From IMG/VR virus record IMGVR_UViG_3300020576_002312, positions 14,187 through 78,186 of that record: DNA of 64,000 nt; one strand, written 5' to 3'. The translations under genes and the position numbers were made by a program. The notes beneath the pieces are model-generated. The model saw only the letters and a program-made list of their open reading frames with translations. It had not been told where the DNA came from and ran no database searches. Shown here piece after piece: positions 5,265 to 32,384 of the stretch; position 1 is the first letter of the stretch, and every line of letters begins with the position of its first letter. This stretch comes from a virus. Taxonomy: Duplodnaviria > Caudoviricetes.

Positions 5265-5744
5265 ATGCTCCTTAAGGCAGTAAGCAAAGTTTGGACTGGG
5301 GCGCACAACGAAAAGTTGCGCATAACAGATTCAACAAATGGAACGACATTCCTATTTAACGGAAGTCACATCAATGGTTTAATAGTAAGAGCAAGCACCA
5401 AGTCCTCGTTTATGTATCAGGATAACGTGCATGACTTCAGGGCAAAATGCTCATATGTGGAAACTGAGTCAACTAAAGCTGCTGTTAAAGCTGCTGCTGA
5501 TTTGACTTTCCAATCTACATTTGTAGCCCTACTCGTATATCCGAACAACGACAGTACAGCAACTCCGGTATCAACAGAAATCAACTGCGAAAGCATTGCC
5601 TATGTTTACAAGGATGCTACTGCCCCTGCAACTAAGTCGTGGGTAGTTTACTACGAAGGTTCAAAACGTAGAGAGGTAAAAGTCGCTTACAGTATCAATC
5701 AGATATTGTCATTAGCTGATGATTCAAATTTGACCACGGTGTAA
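5265..5744 (+). CDS. putative virion/capsid accessory protein
   Basis: Ala/Thr/Ser-rich, beta-type composition; own transcription unit. Confidence 0.45.
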   Translation: MLLKAVSKVWTGAHNEKLRITDSTNGTTFLFNGSHINGLIVRASTKSSFMYQDNVHDFRAKCSYVETESTKAAVKAAADLTFQSTFVALLVYPNNDSTATPVSTEINCESIAYVYKDATAPATKSWVVYYEGSKRREVKVAYSINQILSLADDSNLTTV

Positions 5745-5781
5745 ACTCATTGATTTACAGTTAGTTAGTCTTTCATCATTA

Positions 5782-5816
5782 AATTCCGTTATCTCTTGTT
5801 GATGACGGAATTTTTT
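5782..5816 (+). terminator. intrinsic terminator
   Basis: AATTCCGT/ACGGAATT plus T run. Confidence 0.7.
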
Positions 5817-5850
5817 ATTATATTTGCATACTAACTAAAATTAAAAGAAG

Positions 5851-6528
5851 ATGAAAGATTATGCAGGTGTTCAAGTAAAGGGCAGTAAATATATTGTCCA
5901 GTTTAGAGTTAAAAATAAGTGTGTTTGTGGAGGAACTTACAATACTCCCGAAGAAGCTCACGCTGTTTATCTAAAGATGACAGAAGACCGAAATAAAGAG
6001 TATATTCGTCCTGTAGATTTTATAGAGGGCGAAGAGTGGAGAGAGGTGGCGGGATATGATGGTCGTTATTGGGTAAGCAATCTTGGACGTATAAAAAACA
6101 TGAATCAGCGTCATACTGGGTTAGAATCACTAATGCCTCCACATCGGAATAAAGATGGATATTATACAATTCATCTTAGACCCAAAAACCATAAGTTAGC
6201 TGTTTTAATTTGGGTTACTTTTAATGGAGAATATGACAGGAAAAAAAATCAGGTTAATCATAAAGATTTAGATAAGTCTAATAACCGATTAGATAATCTT
6301 GAATGTATTTATGTTCGAGAGAACCAATGCCATTCACAGCAAAAGATACACAATAAGACAATGATGGGTTGTTACTTTGACAATAATAAAAGGAAATGGA
6401 TTGCTTTAATTTCTGAAGGGGGAAAGCAACGGTATTTAGGGGCATTTTCAACACAAGAGGAGGGTCATGATCGTTACTTACAGGAGGTTGAGAAGATTGG
6501 AGAAACTAATAAGTACTCATTCAAATAA
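5851..6528 (+). CDS. NUMOD4-HNH homing endonuclease with AP2-like flanking domains
   Basis: EEWREVAGYDGRYWVSNLGRIK (NUMOD4); VNHKDLDKSNNRLDNLE (HNH); own TATATTTG box at 5819-5826. Confidence 0.85.
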   Translation: MKDYAGVQVKGSKYIVQFRVKNKCVCGGTYNTPEEAHAVYLKMTEDRNKEYIRPVDFIEGEEWREVAGYDGRYWVSNLGRIKNMNQRHTGLESLMPPHRNKDGYYTIHLRPKNHKLAVLIWVTFNGEYDRKKNQVNHKDLDKSNNRLDNLECIYVRENQCHSQQKIHNKTMMGCYFDNNKRKWIALISEGGKQRYLGAFSTQEEGHDRYLQEVEKIGETNKYSFK

Positions 6529-8113: not shown

Positions 8114-10471
8114 ATGAAAGTAAGCGAAGATATTCTCAGTCGGTATAAACAAGCAGATACATCATTTTTAATCAATGACCTTGATAAAGACAGGCGAACA
8201 ATCCGCATATCACTACCAGAACCACCACCAATAGAACTGATTGATGGGTATGGAGAATTGCCCGAAAACCAAGTATTCAAAAGGAAAGAGACACCACATA
8301 GACTTAAACTACTTGAAAACGAAATCTTAAAGGAACTTCAAGACCGAAAGAAGGGTAACTATCAAGAGACTATCACGGGCTATAAGTTGATTGAGATGTT
8401 TTGGGAGAGGCTTGAGGAAAGAGCAGGGGAACTTGAAGATGAGATTGAATTTATAAAAAAGTTGTGGTGGTGGAGGACATACGGATACTGGTTCTTTAAT
8501 GATGGGAAGCCCACCTACATAACAGGCAGACATTTCATGTTTCTCACGTTCTTTTACATGCCTGACGTTAAAGATAACAACGGATACCCTGAGTATAGGG
8601 ATAGACACCGTAGAGAGTTCTTATTCAGGGATTATCTACGAAAAACACATCATACCTTTGCGAAACGAGATGAGAAGGGATGGGCTGTGACTAACGATGA
8701 TGGTACGTATGAAATGACCGATATGAGGATGCGGTTGTTCTATGGCGTGGCACACCCAAAGAGTAGGCGTAATGGATCTACAATCATGTCGCTGAGTAAT
8801 ATGGTAGAGGGAGCAGAGACGGGTTTCGGAAAGTACTCTACTATTGTTTCTAAGGACGGTTCATCTACTGAAGAAGCATATAAACTAAAGTTACTCCCCG
8901 CATGGAACGACAGACCTCTTTACATACGACCTATTTGGGATGGCAGTTTTAGACCTGAAACAATAAAGTACATTCCCCCAAAGAATAGTCTTGGCATAGA
9001 ATCGTTGATGAGTATTGTGGACTATACCGAGAGTGCAGGTACATTCAAAAAAGACGGTAATAAACTCAATGGGGATATTACTATAGACGAACCAGGTAAA
9101 ACACAAAATATCAGCGTTTTAGAAAGACATGATGTTTATAAGAACGCAGCAGCACTTGGAGATGGAACGGTAATACTTGGGTTCTTTGATTACATATCCA
9201 CGGTAGAGGAAATCAATGCAGCAGGAACGGCTTTCTTAGATTTACTTGACTTATCGGACTTCTATCAAAGGGGTAGTAACGGGCAGACCTCATCAGGGCT
9301 TGCGGTAATGATGTTTCCTTCTTATGATGGTCAGGAAGGATTCATTGATAAGTTTGGGGCAAGTGTGATACACGAACCCACGGAGAGACAAAAACAACTA
9401 CGTCCCGATGCTCAGTTTGCACTACTCAATCAGGGTGCGTTCCAATATCAGCAAGAGAAAAGAGATGACTTCTTAAAGAAAGGTACTCCCGCAGCAATGC
9501 AGTCTTATAGGGCGTATGTAAAAAAATATCCTTGGTGCTCAAGTGAACTTAGTATAGGCACAAGTGGCGACATAGGTTTCAATTACGAGGTACTTGACAA
9601 ACGTATAGCTGAACTACGAAAACTCAAATCACTAAACAGACAAGAGGTAAAGATAGGTAACTTTTACAGGCAAAAAGATTCTCAGGGACAAGACGACCCC
9701 GATGGCAGGGTATTTTGGAGAACAGAGGATAACGGTAAGTTTGAAATGAGTTATGAGCCACCACCATCCTTAACCAACCTACGGACAAGGACTATGGGTT
9801 ATGATGTGAATAAAGGGAAGGTAGTACCGCAATGGCGACCTGTATATATGACTAAATTTACTTTAGGGGCGGACAGTGTTGAATATGCCACGCAAAGAAA
9901 AGATACAGGCAGTAGTAGTAGGCAGTCAGATCCTGCAATGTGTATTTTAAGGGAACATGATGCCACCCTTAATCAAGGGCAAGACCCTACCGATTGGATT
10001 ACTCCTGACATAGTATTATTTTATAGATACAGACCTGCATCTCTTGGGGAATACATGGAAGACTGTATAATGGCAATGGAGTTTTATGGAGCAGCGATAT
10101 TCCCCGAAAGAAACAAGACACGACTCTTAGAATATGTTGTTGAGCGTGGTCGTATGGGCTACTTCAAATATTTAATAAACCCGATTACAGGAAGACAAGA
10201 GGCAGAACCTGGGTATTGGGCGAGCAACGAAAGTAAGCAAGACGGACTTGGCTATGCAAAGGATTGGATAGAGTTCCATGCTCATAAATGCAAACATCTT
10301 CGTTTACTGGAAGAAATGCGAAACATACAGAGTATAGACCAACTTACAAAATTTGATGGATTAGCATCATTTCTTGCCTGTATGATAGGTTCAAAAAGTC
10401 CATACGGTCAAATTGCAGATCGCCAAAGCACATCAAAGATTGATTTAAGTGGTGTGAATTGGCTGAGATAA
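8114..10471 (+). CDS. terL: terminase large subunit (crAss-like length and motifs)
   Basis: PKSRRNGS Walker A-like, ITIDE Walker B, LGADSV and KFDGL nuclease motifs; 785 aa; upstream of portal. Confidence 0.9.
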   Translation: MKVSEDILSRYKQADTSFLINDLDKDRRTIRISLPEPPPIELIDGYGELPENQVFKRKETPHRLKLLENEILKELQDRKKGNYQETITGYKLIEMFWERLEERAGELEDEIEFIKKLWWWRTYGYWFFNDGKPTYITGRHFMFLTFFYMPDVKDNNGYPEYRDRHRREFLFRDYLRKTHHTFAKRDEKGWAVTNDDGTYEMTDMRMRLFYGVAHPKSRRNGSTIMSLSNMVEGAETGFGKYSTIVSKDGSSTEEAYKLKLLPAWNDRPLYIRPIWDGSFRPETIKYIPPKNSLGIESLMSIVDYTESAGTFKKDGNKLNGDITIDEPGKTQNISVLERHDVYKNAAALGDGTVILGFFDYISTVEEINAAGTAFLDLLDLSDFYQRGSNGQTSSGLAVMMFPSYDGQEGFIDKFGASVIHEPTERQKQLRPDAQFALLNQGAFQYQQEKRDDFLKKGTPAAMQSYRAYVKKYPWCSSELSIGTSGDIGFNYEVLDKRIAELRKLKSLNRQEVKIGNFYRQKDSQGQDDPDGRVFWRTEDNGKFEMSYEPPPSLTNLRTRTMGYDVNKGKVVPQWRPVYMTKFTLGADSVEYATQRKDTGSSSRQSDPAMCILREHDATLNQGQDPTDWITPDIVLFYRYRPASLGEYMEDCIMAMEFYGAAIFPERNKTRLLEYVVERGRMGYFKYLINPITGRQEAEPGYWASNESKQDGLGYAKDWIEFHAHKCKHLRLLEEMRNIQSIDQLTKFDGLASFLACMIGSKSPYGQIADRQSTSKIDLSGVNWLR

Positions 10472-11693: not shown

Positions 11694-14030
11694 ATGATTC
11701 AAAGCAATAAGTACGCAACGGGTGAATTTAATCCACCTTCACGTGAAATTGATCCGTTAAAAAAGAATGATGATTACTTTCGTGCGTGGAGTGAATACAT
11801 CTTCTCTTTATGGTCTAAAAGCGAAACCGCTTGGGGTTACGACCAAATGGATTACTTCACAACCATGCGTCAATATGCTGACGGGAAACAGGACTCGAAT
11901 CAATATCGTCCACACGTGATTCAAGCAACTGATGAGGATGACGACACATCGGTAACATCAATCTTCGACAACAACAACTTCACAAGACAGGCAAAACGTA
12001 CAGGTTACGACAATGTGATATGGCAGAACCTGTCTCCAAGCGTGAAGATCATGTCGAGCCTTCACGGAATGTTAGATAAGTTCGACTTTGACATTTACGC
12101 TGACATGATTGATGCCGACAGTAAAGGGTTGGTGGAGTTCATCAAGTATAAGAAGTTTCACGAGGCAAAGGACTTTAAATTTCAATCAGAATATAAGGCT
12201 AAAGCGGGTATTCCCTTTGACCAAGAGGTTACATTTCCAAAGACCAAAGAAGAACTTGAATCTTTCGAGGCGAGAGAAGGCTTTAAACTGAATATAGCAA
12301 AGAGTATGCAGAAGCTCTTACGCTACTCATTCCATTTAAGTCAGTGGGATAGTAATGTAAGAAAGAAGGTACTTGATGATTTTATCTCAGTAGGCTATGG
12401 AGCAACAAGAGATTATTTCGATAGTGAAGATAACAAGTTCAAAGTAAAATGGAATGATCCCGCAAGAGTAGTTATTCAATTCTCTCATGAGTATGACTAT
12501 AATGATGCTGAGTATGCAGGGTACTTTACCGAGTGGACAATATCTAACATAAGGTCTAAACGACCCGACATCCCCGAAGAAGAACTACTTAAACTTGCTA
12601 AAGCTAATACAGGCAGATGGAACAACCCTAAGAGATGGGCAGATAGATATAGTAAACTCGATGGCAAGACAGGTGCATACGGCTACGATAACTTTGATGT
12701 GTGTGTCTTCGAGGCATTGTTCTTAGATACCGATTTCTATAAGAGAAAATACTACAAAGATCAGTGGGGCAAGGATAGAATAAGAGATACCGCTTATAAT
12801 AAAGAGTTATCCGCAGATAGCATACGCAGAGGTAGTAAGGTTGTTAAGGGCGGAACAAGAAACTGGAAGCAGTGCTTTTGGATTGTCGATACTGACTATG
12901 TGTTCGATTGCGGGTTAGTAACCATGAGTCCACGACCAAACGGGACTAAGCCTAAGTGCCCAATTCACGTAGAACAGTTACTTCAGACATCAATCATTTA
13001 TAGGTTACGTCCGATACTCGATCAGATAGCTATCACATGGCTTAGATTCCAAAACTCTATGGCTAACATGGTAGAGAGGGGCTATGCAGTGAACATGGGT
13101 AAGCTGATGGGGATTGTCCTTAACGGAAAAGAGTTAGATCCCGCAAGTGTAATAAACCTATGGAAGCGTAAAGGTCTATTGCCTTATATGGACTCTATGA
13201 CGGGTCAGTACCAGGGGGGCGCAGCTATCCCCGTGACACCTATTGACGGTGGACTCGGACAGAGGGTAATGGAAACACAGACAGTGTTCGATATGCTCTA
13301 TGCAAAGATTGAGTCCGAGATAGGGCTTAACCCATTATCTTTAGGAAGTACTCCTAATCCTAATGCACCTGTGGCAACATCAGAGGCAGCGTTGAGAGCA
13401 ACATCAAACGTACTTAAACCGATAATGGATTCACTCTTTGAACTTAAAGAGAGTATTGCCGAAAGCATGGCGTTAAGGATTCAGATTGGGTTGAGAGTCA
13501 ATGAAGATATTAGACAAGCATACGCAGGGGTCATCACCCCAACCGATATAAGGGCAATGGTCATGGCAGAGAGTTCATCGGTGCAGTATGGTATTATGCT
13601 CAAATCAAGACCTGACGAACAGCAGAGAGCAGACATCAAGCGTTACATGGAGCTTGGAATACAGGCAGGACTTATTACACCACCCGATGCAATGTACTTC
13701 TCGGAAAGGCTGATCTCAGGTTCAGACTTAATTGAGATACGTCAGGAGATAGCCTACTCAATACAGAAAGAGTACGAAAGAAAGCAGAAAGAACAACAGG
13801 CTAACATCGACAGACAGAATCAAGGCTTGATGGCTATGGAACAGCAGAAAGCACAGAATACACAACAGCAGACCATGATGGACACACAGGTTGACATGGC
13901 GAAGAAGAAAGCCGATATTGACGGGAAAGCATACCTGATGAAACTCGAACAGAATTATAATCTACTTAATCAGACCTTACAGGATATGATGGTAGAGGAT
14001 GGATTAGCACAACCAAACGTACCTAAGTAA
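11694..14030 (+). CDS. portal protein
   Basis: 778 aa between terL and scaffold/MCP; Q-rich coiled C-terminus; TATCTTTG 11665-11672. Confidence 0.85.
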   Translation: MIQSNKYATGEFNPPSREIDPLKKNDDYFRAWSEYIFSLWSKSETAWGYDQMDYFTTMRQYADGKQDSNQYRPHVIQATDEDDDTSVTSIFDNNNFTRQAKRTGYDNVIWQNLSPSVKIMSSLHGMLDKFDFDIYADMIDADSKGLVEFIKYKKFHEAKDFKFQSEYKAKAGIPFDQEVTFPKTKEELESFEAREGFKLNIAKSMQKLLRYSFHLSQWDSNVRKKVLDDFISVGYGATRDYFDSEDNKFKVKWNDPARVVIQFSHEYDYNDAEYAGYFTEWTISNIRSKRPDIPEEELLKLAKANTGRWNNPKRWADRYSKLDGKTGAYGYDNFDVCVFEALFLDTDFYKRKYYKDQWGKDRIRDTAYNKELSADSIRRGSKVVKGGTRNWKQCFWIVDTDYVFDCGLVTMSPRPNGTKPKCPIHVEQLLQTSIIYRLRPILDQIAITWLRFQNSMANMVERGYAVNMGKLMGIVLNGKELDPASVINLWKRKGLLPYMDSMTGQYQGGAAIPVTPIDGGLGQRVMETQTVFDMLYAKIESEIGLNPLSLGSTPNPNAPVATSEAALRATSNVLKPIMDSLFELKESIAESMALRIQIGLRVNEDIRQAYAGVITPTDIRAMVMAESSSVQYGIMLKSRPDEQQRADIKRYMELGIQAGLITPPDAMYFSERLISGSDLIEIRQEIAYSIQKEYERKQKEQQANIDRQNQGLMAMEQQKAQNTQQQTMMDTQVDMAKKKADIDGKAYLMKLEQNYNLLNQTLQDMMVEDGLAQPNVPK

Positions 14031-14361: not shown

Positions 14362-14403
14362 TACGATATAGGTACTCACACTACTTATATCGTATTTTTT
14401 TTT
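14362..14403 (+). terminator. intrinsic terminator
   Basis: TACGATATA/TATATCGTA plus T9. Confidence 0.8.
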
Positions 14404-14448
14404 GATGAAATATTTGGAAATGTCAAATGGGTGATTTATCTTTGCTGC

Positions 14449-14637
14449 ATGAAAAAATCAAAACTTAAAAAAGAGAATCAATATTTAAGGGATACAATTA
14501 GTGTTCTCCGTAAAGAAATAGATACTCTCTGTGGAGATGATGAATACGCCAAAAGCGTTATTAAACTTGAAAGGCAGATTAACCAAGACCTTGCTGATGC
14601 GCTATGGTCGGTTGCTTTCTCTCATGGGCGATACTAA
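14449..14637 (+). CDS. small coiled-coil protein, probably leaderless
   Basis: ATG 4 nt after TATCTTTG (14437-14444). Confidence 0.6.
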   Translation: MKKSKLKKENQYLRDTISVLRKEIDTLCGDDEYAKSVIKLERQINQDLADALWSVAFSHGRY

Positions 14638-14670
14638 AGCGATTTAAAAAATAATACTTATCTTTGTTAC

Positions 14671-15060
14671 GTTAAAAGAATAACGTGGCAAGATTCCAAA
14701 GACATAATTCAAAAGTACTGAACCTCGTAGATGGTTGTAGAACTTCCGCTTTCCACGGTATTCTTTTAACCAACCTAATACGGGGTTCTTCTATAACTTA
14801 TCTTGACTCCCTGCTGATTATATCGAGCAAAATTGAAGACGTACTATTTGTAGCAGGGGGAATAAAAATAATCTGTGCAACGTCCGACAGCCTGACGACA
14901 TAGTGGGTAATCTCCTTTAAAGGATAAAACAATCCCCCCCAATTAAACTATTGGATTAAACTAACAAGTAGAGTGCAAAGATGCAAAGTGGGTAAGATTA
15001 CCCTATAAAGGCTCTTATACCCTTGACTGAACGACACCTGAAAATGGGTATCGTTTTTTT
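14671..15060 (+). ncRNA. stand-alone ~390-nt structured RNA of unknown family
   Basis: Own promoter 14659-14666 and terminator ~15028-15060; several long perfect stems; only a weak 72-aa ORF. Confidence 0.65.
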
Positions 15061-15103
15061 TATGTACCTTTGCAAAAGGAAACTTAACGAAAAGAACAGA
15101 AAT

Positions 15104-16228
15104 ATGGCAGGACTTGGAGATATTTTAGGCAAGGGAACGGCAACGCCCCCTGTAGAACCAACAGAACCGACAACACCGGTTACTCCCGCAGGTGAACCAA
15201 CAACACCAACGACACCTCCGGTAGAACCGAAAAAAGATACAACTCATCCACCCGCAACGACAACATCGTGGGTTGATGAGATTAACAAGGCGTACAAAAC
15301 AGAGTTTAAGACTCCCGAAGATTTTGGTAAGTACTTTGAAAGATCAAAGAAGGTCGATGAGTATGAAAGTAAATCTAAGGAGTTTGAGACAAAAGAAAAG
15401 CAGTATAAAGAGCAAGTTGAAACCTTGCAGAGTTCATTGAATCCATTGAGCTATTTTTCAACACCAGAGGCTTACGTAGCCGAGCAGCTAAGAAGGCAAT
15501 ACCCCGATAAGAGTCCTTCTGTATTACAGGAGATTGTAATCAGAGACACAAAAGGAGTAGCCGACATAGAAGTGCTTGTAAAAAACAAACTACTTGAGAC
15601 TCCTGACCTCATAGGCGGGGAAGCGGGAGCGAGAGAATTAGTTTACAGCGAACTTGGTATAGACGGGGACACTTTAGAGACAGAGTGGACAAACCTGACT
15701 AAGAACAAGATCAAAACACAAGCCAAAGATATACGTAAGTCGTGGGATGAACTTAAATCTAAAGTCGAGTTACCGAAGGTACAGACCGCAGAGGAGATTG
15801 CCCTTTCACGGACAAACGCACTTCAAGCAAAACTTGAATCAGCAAAACCCCTGATAGAGCAGTATTCAAAGTTCGATCACTTTACAGAAGAAATTGAAGA
15901 CGGTAAAACATTCGATTTTATAGTGCCGGATGAGTATAAACAATCACTACCTGAAATGATAAAGGCAGCGATTGAGGCAGGGATAGAACCAACCGCAGAG
16001 AACATGGCTGTACTCCATGAGCAGAAAGAGGCTTTACTCCTTCGTAGGAACTTCAAGCAGATATATAAAAGTATCGAGGCTGATGTCGAGACGAGGTTGA
16101 AAGCTGAAGAAGATAAACGAAACGGTAACATTCCACCCGCTAATACTACAAAGGCTACGGAGTCAGAGTTAGAACGTCAGAAATTCAGTAAAGAACATGG
16201 TATTGGAAAATTGCTTGACAAAAAATAA
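15104..16228 (+). CDS. capsid scaffolding protein
   Basis: P/T/E-rich N-terminus, coiled coils, directly before MCP; TACCTTTG 15065-15072 supports ATG 15104. Confidence 0.7.
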   Translation: MAGLGDILGKGTATPPVEPTEPTTPVTPAGEPTTPTTPPVEPKKDTTHPPATTTSWVDEINKAYKTEFKTPEDFGKYFERSKKVDEYESKSKEFETKEKQYKEQVETLQSSLNPLSYFSTPEAYVAEQLRRQYPDKSPSVLQEIVIRDTKGVADIEVLVKNKLLETPDLIGGEAGARELVYSELGIDGDTLETEWTNLTKNKIKTQAKDIRKSWDELKSKVELPKVQTAEEIALSRTNALQAKLESAKPLIEQYSKFDHFTEEIEDGKTFDFIVPDEYKQSLPEMIKAAIEAGIEPTAENMAVLHEQKEALLLRRNFKQIYKSIEADVETRLKAEEDKRNGNIPPANTTKATESELERQKFSKEHGIGKLLDKK

Positions 16229-16263: not shown

Positions 16264-17706
16264 ATGTCACTTTCCAATCAGGCAATTACAAACAACACCT
16301 TTCAGGGATCTCACGATTCCGCATGGGCGAGTCTTTATAGTCTCGTCAATCTTCCACAGGTATATCCTAATCTCGTACAGCGTTACGGTGCAGGATTTTC
16401 CAGAGAATTTTTCGAGTTCCTTACCATCGCAGGACAGGTAGGTACTTGTAAAGCACAGACAGAAACAACTTTTGAGAAGGGTTCTCCTGAAAAGGCAATT
16501 ACTCTTTCCGCAGCTATCACAGTTGTTGGCGCAGGCGCAACAATCGCTGTATCAATCAACGAGTGGAACGGTGCAGGTCAGTCTTACCTTTCAATAGGAC
16601 AGAAGATACTTATCCCACCTGCCTATATCACAAAGAGTGGTGTAAAACCCGTAGTAGGTCACTGGTATCAGGTAACTTCAATGGGCGCAGTTCAAGCACC
16701 GGAAGCTAACACTGTATTCACATGTACCCCTCTTGATGCACTGACAGTTCTCGCAGTACAAGTTCCATCGGGAACAAGTCTGATGGTAACAGGAGGTAAC
16801 TTTGCTCCTGGTTCACTTGGCGCAAAACCTAAAACAAGCGGATGGTACTCACGTACATTCACAACTGCTATCAAACGTGCTGCTTTCGCTATCGAGGGTT
16901 CACAGCAGTCCACAGAGAGATACACCGACCACCTTATAGGAGGAAGTCAGGGTGTATTCAGTGAGGCTTCAATTCAGGGTGAGTTCGATCTCGATCAGTC
17001 AATAAATTACGAAATCCTTCTTGGTGGAGTAGCAAACAACCTGACCATGACTAACGAGGATAGTGTTGCTAACTCAGTACGTGGTACACTCGGATTCCTT
17101 CCACAGCTTGAATCAAGAGCTTGCAGACAGTATTACACATCTGCTTATAGCGTTCCTGATGTTGATGATATCAAAAAAGCATGGATTTCACAGGGTGTTA
17201 CCGAAACCAATGGTACACTGATTGCGGGGAATGATTTCCTTCAGGGATTAGAGAACAACGCTCTTGACTTCATTAAAGAGTTCTCAGGTGGAACAGACCT
17301 TATGACAGCAATGAACGAGATGAAAGTTGACTTCAAAGTGCTGAAAAAAGGACTCATCACACTGACACTTCACGAGATGAAATCTTTCACCAACCCTAAC
17401 ACCCTTGGTAACTACGACTTCGGCAAGTACGCAGTTGTATTCCCAAGCACACAGGTAACAGTGAGAGAAGGTGCAGGTGCAACCGAGATTAAGATTCCAA
17501 ACGTAAGGCTCGCCTATAAGAACTATAATGGTGAAGACAGAACACGTTGCTTCGGGACTATCAACGGTATCAATGGATTTTCAGGTGGAAATCAGAACAT
17601 TGCTGACGCAAGGGACAGAAAAAAAGTTGAGATATTAAGTGAGTTCATGCTTCAGGTTCATGCAGCCAACCAAATGCTCCTTATAATGCCGTCAACGGTT
17701 TTATAA
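16264..17706 (+). CDS. major capsid protein
   Basis: 480 aa; position; highly biased codon usage; strong terminator after it. Confidence 0.85.
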   Translation: MSLSNQAITNNTFQGSHDSAWASLYSLVNLPQVYPNLVQRYGAGFSREFFEFLTIAGQVGTCKAQTETTFEKGSPEKAITLSAAITVVGAGATIAVSINEWNGAGQSYLSIGQKILIPPAYITKSGVKPVVGHWYQVTSMGAVQAPEANTVFTCTPLDALTVLAVQVPSGTSLMVTGGNFAPGSLGAKPKTSGWYSRTFTTAIKRAAFAIEGSQQSTERYTDHLIGGSQGVFSEASIQGEFDLDQSINYEILLGGVANNLTMTNEDSVANSVRGTLGFLPQLESRACRQYYTSAYSVPDVDDIKKAWISQGVTETNGTLIAGNDFLQGLENNALDFIKEFSGGTDLMTAMNEMKVDFKVLKKGLITLTLHEMKSFTNPNTLGNYDFGKYAVVFPSTQVTVREGAGATEIKIPNVRLAYKNYNGEDRTRCFGTINGINGFSGGNQNIADARDRKKVEILSEFMLQVHAANQMLLIMPSTVL

Positions 17707-17760: not shown

Positions 17761-17861
17761 TATCTTTGTAGTGGAGATAGTCGAGGGTAATTGCTCGATG
17801 ATAAGGGGCAGCCAACAACCCTTCTCCACTTTTGTTGGCATCACTAAATTGTTGGATAATG
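17761..17861 (+). promoter_or_regulatory. promoter plus pseudoknot leader, copy A
   Basis: AGTGGAGA/TCTCCACT, TCGAG/CTCGA, AGGG/CCCT; loop GCCAACAA pairs with TTGTTGGC (17832) or TTGTTGG (17849). Confidence 0.7.
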
Positions 17862-18671
17862 AATAAGATATGTACTGTATGTGGGCAAGAGAAAGAGATT
17901 GATCTCTTTGTAAAGAAGGCTAAAAGTCCAGACGGACACGCATCTGAATGTAAAGATTGCCATAATAAGCACAATAAGGATGTTTATTATAGAGATATAG
18001 AAAAAAGTAGAGAAAAAGGACGGACAACATCTGCTTCTTATAAAAAAAGGCATCCAGATAGGGTTAAGGAAAATGCTAAGAAGGAACATGTAAAAAATAA
18101 AGACAAATATGATAGCCGTATTATTATATATAGGAGTACACATAAGGATGAAATAAATACATCCAAGCGAGAGTACGCTAAAAAACATCCTGAAAAGGTA
18201 AAAAAATGGCACGATAATGCAGTTAAGAAAAATGGGGATAAATATAAGGATACTAATAAAAGATATAAAAAAGAAAATAAAGAACGTCTTAATAAACTTG
18301 AGGTTGAAAGACGTAACAAGAATCCACAATTAAAGATTGCGCATAGTCTTAGAAATAGCATAGGTAAATCGTTAAAATCCAAGAGTGAACTTGGAAGAAC
18401 TCCATCTCTTATAGGATGCTCTATTGATTCTTTTTGTAAATATCTTGAATCTTTGTTTACAGATGGGATGACATGGAAAAACTATGGACAGGGAAATGAT
18501 AAATGGACGATTGACCATACAATTCCCCTTGTGACGTTTGACCTTGAAAACGAAGAACAACAAAAGATAGCGTTTCATTGGAGCAATATGAAACCTATGT
18601 GGCAAAGAGAAAATTTTTCTAAAGGGAGTTTGCATAATGGGGTTAGACATCACCGAAAGAAGGCATCTTAA
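17859..18671 (+). CDS. HNH homing endonuclease, family copy 2
   Basis: CTVC..CKDC; WTIDHTIPL..FDL...FHWSNMKPMW..ENFSKG. Confidence 0.85.
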   Translation: MNKICTVCGQEKEIDLFVKKAKSPDGHASECKDCHNKHNKDVYYRDIEKSREKGRTTSASYKKRHPDRVKENAKKEHVKNKDKYDSRIIIYRSTHKDEINTSKREYAKKHPEKVKKWHDNAVKKNGDKYKDTNKRYKKENKERLNKLEVERRNKNPQLKIAHSLRNSIGKSLKSKSELGRTPSLIGCSIDSFCKYLESLFTDGMTWKNYGQGNDKWTIDHTIPLVTFDLENEEQQKIAFHWSNMKPMWQRENFSKGSLHNGVRHHRKKAS

Positions 18672-31783: not shown

Positions 31784-31985
31784 TATCTTTGTGCTGATTT
31801 AACTGACAGTTATAGTCGTAGGTTAGCAAAAGAAATATTTAAGCAGAATAAAGATTGCCCCGAAAGAGGTGGTGTTAATTTGTCCGATAACTACGAACCA
31901 TTAACTGTCAGCCCATCCTCTTAGGGGTTTCTCTTTTTAGATGGGGGATATTGGTTCAGCAACCATAAATCATCATAACTGAAAC
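31784..31985 (+). promoter_or_regulatory. promoter plus structured leader/sRNA
   Basis: CTGACAGTTA (31803) and TCGTAG (31816) are complementary to TAACTGTCAG (31902) and CTACGA (31891) inside a CCCC..AAGAGG/CCTCTT..GGGG hairpin. Confidence 0.6.
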
Positions 31986-32093
31986 ATGATAGCTAATAAC
32001 ATGTCAAAAGTATTAATAGCATTGCCGATCAAAGGCAACAGGGAGTGTGACCTGTATAAACATTACACGCCAAAACAAAACAAAATAAAATAA
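31986..32093 (+). CDS. 35-aa ORF
   Basis: MIANNMSKVLIALPIKGNRECDLYKHYTPKQNKIK, downstream of the leader. Confidence 0.35.
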   Translation: MIANNMSKVLIALPIKGNRECDLYKHYTPKQNKIK

Positions 32094-32094
32094 A

Positions 32095-32210
32095 GCGAAA
32101 CGAAATGAAACGAGCGAAATGACGGGGTAGTATCTCTCATGCGATTAAGCATGGGGGGTAGGGGGGCATACTACCCCTGAATGAGCGAGTGAGTGAGTGA
32201 GCGAGCAAGT
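32095..32210. repeat. CGAAA-like repeats, G-rich hairpin and (GAGY)6 array
   Basis: GGGGTAGTA/TACTACCCC stem 32124-32177; GAGC GAGT GAGT GAGT GAGC GAGC at 32183-32206. Confidence 0.7.
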
Positions 32211-32384
32211 GTGAATCTTTTCTCCCTGAAAAGTAATGATTATCAAAACTAAAGTTGATTAAGTTAAACCTTGTAAAGTTATAATACTTATTCTCTTTTA
32301 GGACTAAGACTACAATGGGGTGCTATGGAGTAAAGTGACTTGTCCTTAAAAAGCACTATCTTTGTAAGGTAAATCAGTTCTCTC

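Follow-up and report, generated by a model that had tools for sequence, protein, structure and literature searches.

A candidate modular RNA gene with a pseudoknotted fold at the portal-scaffold junction of an uncultured crAss-like phage

The portal-scaffold interval and its transcription signals

We analyzed a window of 64,000 nucleotides (the whole stretch of DNA under study), which belongs to a 78-kb virus record of IMG/VR and derives from an uncultured crAss-like phage. The genes of interest encode the large terminase, a nucleotidyltransferase and a P22-type portal, a scaffold-like protein and the capsid protein (Table 1). The portal is only ~21% identical to those of the nearest cultured phages (phages of Cellulophaga, Maribacter and Tenacibaculum), whose hosts are Flavobacteriia. 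The neighboring genes are tightly packed when read with the standard code, and a gap of ~470 nt, which follows two small ORFs downstream of the portal gene, therefore stands out. This gap holds the RNA gene described below. The sequencing runs in which the RNA stretch was found are DNA runs only, and they come from wastewater, rivers, freshwater and activated sludge. We also searched the entire genome for a reverse transcriptase, as would be associated with retron- or DGR-type RNAs, and none was found. Finally, a 13-bp hairpin followed by a T9 run (14362-14403, after a 95-aa gene) forms a clean terminator between the portal and scaffold genes, which indicates that several separate transcription units make up this interval.

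An earlier note on this DNA had proposed that the RNA is a unit with its own promoter box (TATCTTTG at 14659), its own terminator up to ~15060 and a new promoter from which the scaffold gene restarts. All of these signals were recovered. The -7 box is located at 14659-14666 and the promoter of the RNA is of the Bacteroidota type; its extended motif was also found before other genes of the phage structural region. A terminator-like hairpin and a U8 run are present at ~15030-15061 in the window only. The hairpin is absent from the other members of the family and, because the terminator is restricted to the window, the RNA may be read through into the next gene in other phages. The scaffold-like gene is directly preceded by a box of the form TAnnTTTG, and such a second box was found directly before the next gene in all nine members for which the 3′ flank is available (9/9). 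The RNA unit is flanked by these two promoter boxes, which are 385-420 nt apart. Based on these motifs, we infer that the RNA gene extends on the plus strand from position 14667 of the window to ~15020-15060, which corresponds to a length of ~350-390 nt.

The small ORFs upstream provide some information on where transcription is initiated. One of them, 62 codons long, has its ATG (14449) 4 nt after its own -7 box TATCTTTG (14437-14444). Given this short distance, its mRNA is probably leaderless, which hints that transcription starts ~5 nt after the -7 box. In addition, the conserved stretch that precedes the box of the RNA (14620-14658 in the window, 2940-2975 in contig L078 and 170-205 in contig L071) contains the stop codon of the upstream gene. 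The cassette seems to bring along the end of the preceding ORF.

Table 1. Genes, signals and predicted RNA elements of the window and of related contigs (window coordinates unless a contig is named).
Feature	Position	Strand	Remarks
Large terminase	8114-10471		
Nucleotidyltransferase and P22-type portal	11694-14030		
Two small ORFs			between portal and gap
Gap with RNA gene	14638-15103		
RNA cassette promoter	14620..14666	+	~45-nt conserved upstream stretch and -7 box TATCTTTG (14659-14666)
P0 inverted repeat/hairpin	14663..14692	+	TTTG of the -7 box and next bases with GTG-containing segment
P1, pseudoknot 1	14671..14770	+	5′ tail 14671-14691 with P2 loop 14750-14770
72-codon ORF, GTG start	14685..14903	+	open in relatives, without protein-level selection
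P2a	14720-14728 / 14780-14788	+	
P2b	14732-14737 / 14771-14776	+	
Near-invariant linker	14789-14800	+	
P3o	14801-14805 / 14835-14839	+	encloses P3 hairpin 14812-14829
3′-module frame	14844..14971	+	P10a/b 14844-14854 / 14960-14971; P4 14856-14860 / 14934-14938
P5; P7; P8	14873-14903; 14913-14924; 14939-14954	+	enclosed by P10 and P4
P6, pseudoknot 2	14905-14912 / 14996-15003	+	crosses P4 and P10
PK2, pseudoknot 3	14888..15014	+	P5 loop 14888-14893 with 3′ tail 15009-15014
P9 hairpin	14974-14985	+	inside P6
Terminator-like hairpin and U8 run	15030..15061	+	window only
-7 box of scaffold-like gene	15065..15072	+	TACCTTTG
Scaffold-like gene	15104-16228		
Capsid gene	16264-17706		
Second structured RNA	31784-32340	+	promoter-driven, before 2249-aa gene; L045:8645-9165
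Homing-endonuclease genes	17832-18671; L054:2715-3518; L045:4447-4956	L054: -	

Homologues and conservation of the fold

The search with the portal returned 209 proteins, all of which present at most 58% identity. In IMG/VR, a single-sequence portal search yielded no match and a profile scan with the portal identified 41 loci, two of which (L016 and L033) match the gap at the DNA level. The RNA stretch is the only part of these two loci that can be aligned as DNA, with a nucleotide identity of ~70-80%; their portals are 44-47% identical and their scaffold proteins present an amino-acid identity of 30-37%. The high nucleotide identity of the cassette relative to its flanks could partly reflect recent exchange. 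A word-based search with the peptide of the ORF that overlaps the RNA gave a single match, leading to L049, and a metagenome scan for the invariant motif of the P3 hairpin added nine further members as well as the distant L052. Using a profile of the ORF translations solely as a handle on gene calls, we found 14 more small "proteins", eight of which were traced to contigs (L071-L079). Overall, at least 19 distinct homologues were found in phage contigs from freshwater and wastewater, and a covariance model of the 5′ module (R1) matches 19 distinct sequences with E-values ranging from 1e-7 to 1e-32.

Other collections did not extend this list. No copy of the RNA was found at the DNA level in GenBank phages. 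In 185,000 species genomes, the P3 motif was matched only by chance, within coding regions, and an IMG/VR scan with a motif of the 3′ module likewise gave nothing beyond chance matches. Rfam 15 yielded no match to the window RNA, whether at the gathering threshold or with E-values allowed up to 10, and searching Rfam with seven further members (E up to 0.1) returned tRNAs only, along with one chance match far below threshold. The earlier note had suggested a comparison with the known families of large RNAs: none of the covariance models of ROOL, GOLLD, HEARO, OLE, raiA and the other Rfam 15 families matched, in agreement with its view that the RNA is new. Published work on crAss-like phages and non-coding RNAs was searched as well and no description of this RNA was found.

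The minimum free energy of the RNA stretch has a z-score of -2.99. We aligned 10 sequences with plain MAFFT (alignment A4) and used them to evaluate a structural model of 14 helices and 86 pairs. In this alignment, 92.0% of the cells are paired, as opposed to 36-45% when the partners are slid, and 41 of the 86 pairs have changed on both sides, compared to 7-16 in the slid controls. Not one of 500 shuffles reached the 14-helix model on any measure. We then counted 46 G-U pairs versus 13 A-C pairs, an excess which fits an RNA that is read from the plus strand. These results point to a genuine structured non-coding RNA gene on the plus strand, whose predicted helices are kept by compensating changes above the level of the controls. 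Since no helix joins columns 1-190 of the alignment to columns 195-380, the RNA is composed of two structural modules, which are predicted to fold independently of each other.

The 5′ module (P1-P3) is ~170 nt long and is common to all relatives. Across 19 sequences, 95.1% of its cells are paired and 18 of 27 pairs have changed on both sides, although this alignment was fitted to the model and hence leans towards the structure. P2 forms a long hairpin with the 3′ strand of P1 within its loop (95-96% paired; in the 19 sequences, 11 of its 15 pairs carry changes on both sides). The sequence of P1 is wholly different between members, and this helix was therefore tested without alignment. The mean duplex energy of cognate strands is -21.2 kcal/mol, versus -11.2 kcal/mol for non-cognate strands (sd 4.1), and the cognate partner was the best one in 14 of 17 members. 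P1 corresponds to an 18-bp stem (14671-14688 / 14753-14770) that had been singled out before; it forms 17 of the 18 pairs, 12 of them in a perfect run, and is the best-supported helix of the RNA. The order of the strands (P1-5′, P2-5′, P1-3′, P2-3′) makes this arrangement a true pseudoknot: the 5′ tail reaches into a long hairpin and pairs with its loop. The large pseudoknot, which the earlier note had offered as one of two readings, is real in this sense, but the crossing helix is P2 (14720-14737 / 14771-14788) and not the helices named there.

Three additional helices had been suggested from the window: CAAGAT/ATCTTG, GTTGTAGAA/TTCTATAAC and CCCTGCT/AGCAGGG. These sequences can pair in the window but not in the relatives; with 68% of cells paired, they equal the shuffles and show no excess of covariation, and we did not retain them.

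Downstream of P2, the near-invariant linker leads to P3o and to the P3 hairpin, whose sequence (CUGAU-UAU-AUCGAG) is invariant; the hairpin is optional and is missing in three members. At the opposite end of the module, P0 is an alternative to P1, as the 5′ strand of P1 takes its 3′ part from one of the P0 segments. P0 was found at the same place in 11 relatives. Its energy ranges from -9.5 to -12 kcal/mol in 10 of the 12 folded sequences (it is weaker in L016 and L055), and that of shuffled sequences from -1.5 to -3.6 kcal/mol. The arms of P0 differ between phages, which suggests selection for pairing. If transcription indeed starts ~5 nt after the -7 box, the 5′ arm of P0 would be situated outside the RNA, and the hairpin would then form only in read-through transcripts or in DNA. 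Transient 5′ hairpins are known from the co-transcriptional folding of other RNAs, and it is conceivable that P0 might protect the P1 strand as long as the partner of this strand has not been synthesized.

The 3′ module (P4-P10 and PK2) is ~180 nt long and adopts a compact multi-helix fold that is locked by the pseudoknots P6 and PK2. We aligned this module for 13 sequences with plain MAFFT (alignment A9) and 94.7% of the cells were found to be paired, versus 33-43% with slid partners; 26 of the 42 pairs have changed on both sides. Taken individually, P6 is 94% paired (4/8 pairs changed on both sides) and PK2 is 96% paired (4/6 pairs). P7 is a variable hairpin, which carries a GNRA tetraloop in four relatives. 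Several pairings of this module had been anticipated and hold with covariation: the GGGTAATC/GATTACCC helix is P6, the short hairpin at 14913-14924 is P7, and the pairing of GGGGG with a C-run is P4. Together with the 5′ module, covariation and duplex energies show three predicted pseudoknot contacts in this RNA: P1 across P2, P6 and PK2.

Exchangeable 3′ modules and genomic contexts

The 5′ module was found in combination with at least four different 3′ modules, of which at least three are unrelated to the type-1 module of the window. In L075, the type-1 3′ module was kept and P3 was lost. A second 3′ module is common to L076 and L078, a third is present in L077 and a fourth in L052. The R1 model also matches members that possess these other 3′ domains. 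This association of one constant 5′ domain with at least four different 3′ domains is an unusual modular design.

The RNA occupies two genomic contexts. In the window and in eight contigs (L016, L033, L049, L050, L059, L073, L076 and L077), it is located before the scaffold and capsid genes. In L051, L055, L058, L075 and L078, it follows genes of glycan synthesis, including a glycosyltransferase, and it is followed by a homologue of window 5265-5744 and a lectin-like gene. The ~45 nt upstream of the -7 box accompany the RNA in both contexts, whatever the upstream gene. Most relatives do not have the RNA, and ~20 of those with the same portal-scaffold layout carry only small ORFs at this place.

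The closest relative of the window phage (L045, 57% portal identity) presents a 583-nt gap at the portal-scaffold junction that does not contain this RNA. The gap is homologous to a second structured RNA of the window (Table 1), with compensating changes in the 5′ helices. This second RNA is pseudoknotted and has the same 5′ layout, with a tail that pairs to a hairpin loop. It did not match Rfam, the R1 model matched neither the window copy nor that of L045, and an IMG/VR scan with a motif derived from the second RNA gave no match. A single junction thus carries this RNA in one phage, a different RNA in another and none in most relatives. At the level of sequence comparison, we consider it shown that promoter and RNA behave as a movable accessory cassette.

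Candidate roles of the RNA

We think it reasonably probable that the locus is a stand-alone modular non-coding RNA gene, carried as a mobile accessory cassette, whose folded RNA product works in trans, by itself or within a ribonucleoprotein. Under this reading, folding, stability or partner binding would depend on the constant 5′ module as a common handle, and the work itself would be done by the variable 3′ module. The patchy, moron-like distribution argues for an accessory role, perhaps in host takeover or counter-defence, more than for a core function in head assembly. The trans-acting accessory role is read from distribution and architecture only. A more specific version is put forward tentatively, and we regard it as rather doubtful: the RNA would represent a new class in which the 5′ pseudoknot handle recruits a common partner or self-assembles and the interchangeable 3′ domains confer different specificities; the molecule would be an exchangeable effector of phage-host conflict, passed between phages together with its promoter.

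ROOL and GOLLD are large ornate RNAs of phages and prophages whose function is unknown and which were found to form multimers by cryo-EM (PMC12286853). Like these RNAs, the RNA of the window is large and phage-borne, contains many helices and pseudoknots, has its own predicted promoter and a patchy distribution, and yields no protein product. Unlike them, it is smaller (~370 nt), is not located beside tRNA genes in the window and combines a constant 5′ domain with exchangeable 3′ domains; it shares no sequence or model similarity with either family. It is a new RNA family, absent from Rfam and from the literature that we searched, with three well-supported pseudoknot contacts. To our knowledge, large RNAs that fold intricately and whose function is unknown are rare, and every such discovery has so far brought new biochemistry. 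With ~370 nt and clear domain boundaries, this RNA is tractable for chemical probing and cryo-EM, and the covariation-based model is directly testable.

Alternatively, the RNA could be a cis-acting leader similar to a riboswitch or an antitermination element, with the 5′ module as sensor and the variable 3′ part as expression platform. Such a leader would account for several features: the RNA always precedes a gene directly and on the same strand, a terminator is missing in most members, and a constant 5′ part joined to a variable 3′ part resembles an aptamer and its platform. However, wherever a 3′ flank is available, the RNA is separated from the next gene by a full promoter motif, and the downstream genes are different, being either the scaffold gene or an unrelated gene of 159-177 aa. 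The intervening promoter and the two different downstream genes make a cis-acting leader unlikely. Moreover, the type-1 3′ module is a conserved pseudoknotted fold without a terminator/antiterminator alternative, and the window RNA possesses its own terminator.

We give little credence to the possibility that the RNA is a ribozyme, which might for instance process its own 3′ end or act on host RNA. The core combines several pseudoknots with GNRA loops and with purine-rich joiners that are unpaired and invariant, which would be in keeping with catalysis, and the lack of a terminator in most members implies that their 3′ end is made in some other way. Yet no Rfam ribozyme family was matched, no cleavage site could be inferred, and invariant bases are found in both modules, although the 3′ module is replaceable.

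Another alternative, to which we give very little credence, is that a fast-evolving peptide of 64-104 aa is translated from the RNA, which would be an mRNA or have a dual function; the structure would then control translation through a start buried in P1 or P0. The 72-codon ORF of the window does begin at a GTG inside the first stem, as the earlier note had observed. An open frame of 64-104 codons with an aligned ATG or GTG start is present in all members scored (17/17); the ORF of L078 is known only from the protein search, and the distant L052 has no ORF there. Gene callers predict the ORF in many metagenomes and, in L033, it is kept open through compensating indels. One shuffled sequence gives a frame of at least 70 codons ~10% of the time, and the ORF is open more often than expected for a purely non-coding RNA; part of this count is biased by the way in which several members were found, through called ORFs.

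The substitution patterns, in contrast, argue against a conserved peptide. Differences in the ORF are distributed over the three codon positions as 0.27, 0.31 and 0.25, without third-position bias or periodicity. The pN/pS ratio in the ORF frame is 0.87 (10 pairs) or 0.98 (15 sequences), the two other frames being no higher, and amino-acid identity is lower than nucleotide identity. The most conserved bases, those of the linker and P3, are read in another frame in L033, L052 and L075-L077 due to 1-2-nt indels. GTG accounts for about one quarter of the starts. At the first position of the start codon, both A and G occur, and the P1 partner of this base changes along with it in two members. No match to the ORF was found in Pfam or PHROG. 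The earlier note had recognized that the 72-aa ORF might turn out to be the conserved product, which pN/pS, periodicity and frame shifts all speak against. We conclude that the product of the RNA gene is not a conserved protein; the translation of a sequence-indifferent peptide is compatible with these patterns. The proposal of a new large phage non-coding RNA is sustained, with strong covariation across 14 helices, no Rfam match and no protein-level selection on the ORF.

An RNA of the phi29 pRNA kind would be expected to be an obligatory part of the packaging motor and to be fixed in all relatives; the phi29 pRNA is ~120-174 nt long and contains a three-way junction along with two loops through which separate copies pair. 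The RNA described here is also a structured RNA encoded by phages, and most members are located within the block of head and structural genes, just before the scaffold and capsid genes and with the same type of promoter as the scaffold gene; unlike pRNA, it is ~350-390 nt long (2-3 times larger), comprises 14 helices and does not match the pRNA covariance model. A pRNA-like role in head assembly or packaging at the portal or procapsid, which the earlier note had raised from the position of the RNA, deserves hardly any credence, because this position is not fixed (other phages carry it at a different junction), close relatives can do without the RNA (~20 relatives have the same portal-scaffold-capsid module but lack it, and another RNA takes its place in L045) and an ordinary large terminase is present.

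The surroundings of the cassette contain other elements. Homing-endonuclease genes of the GIY-YIG/HNH types were observed near the RNA in several phages (Table 1), and in L075 at least eight tRNA genes are arrayed (5301-6195) ~2 kb downstream of the RNA.
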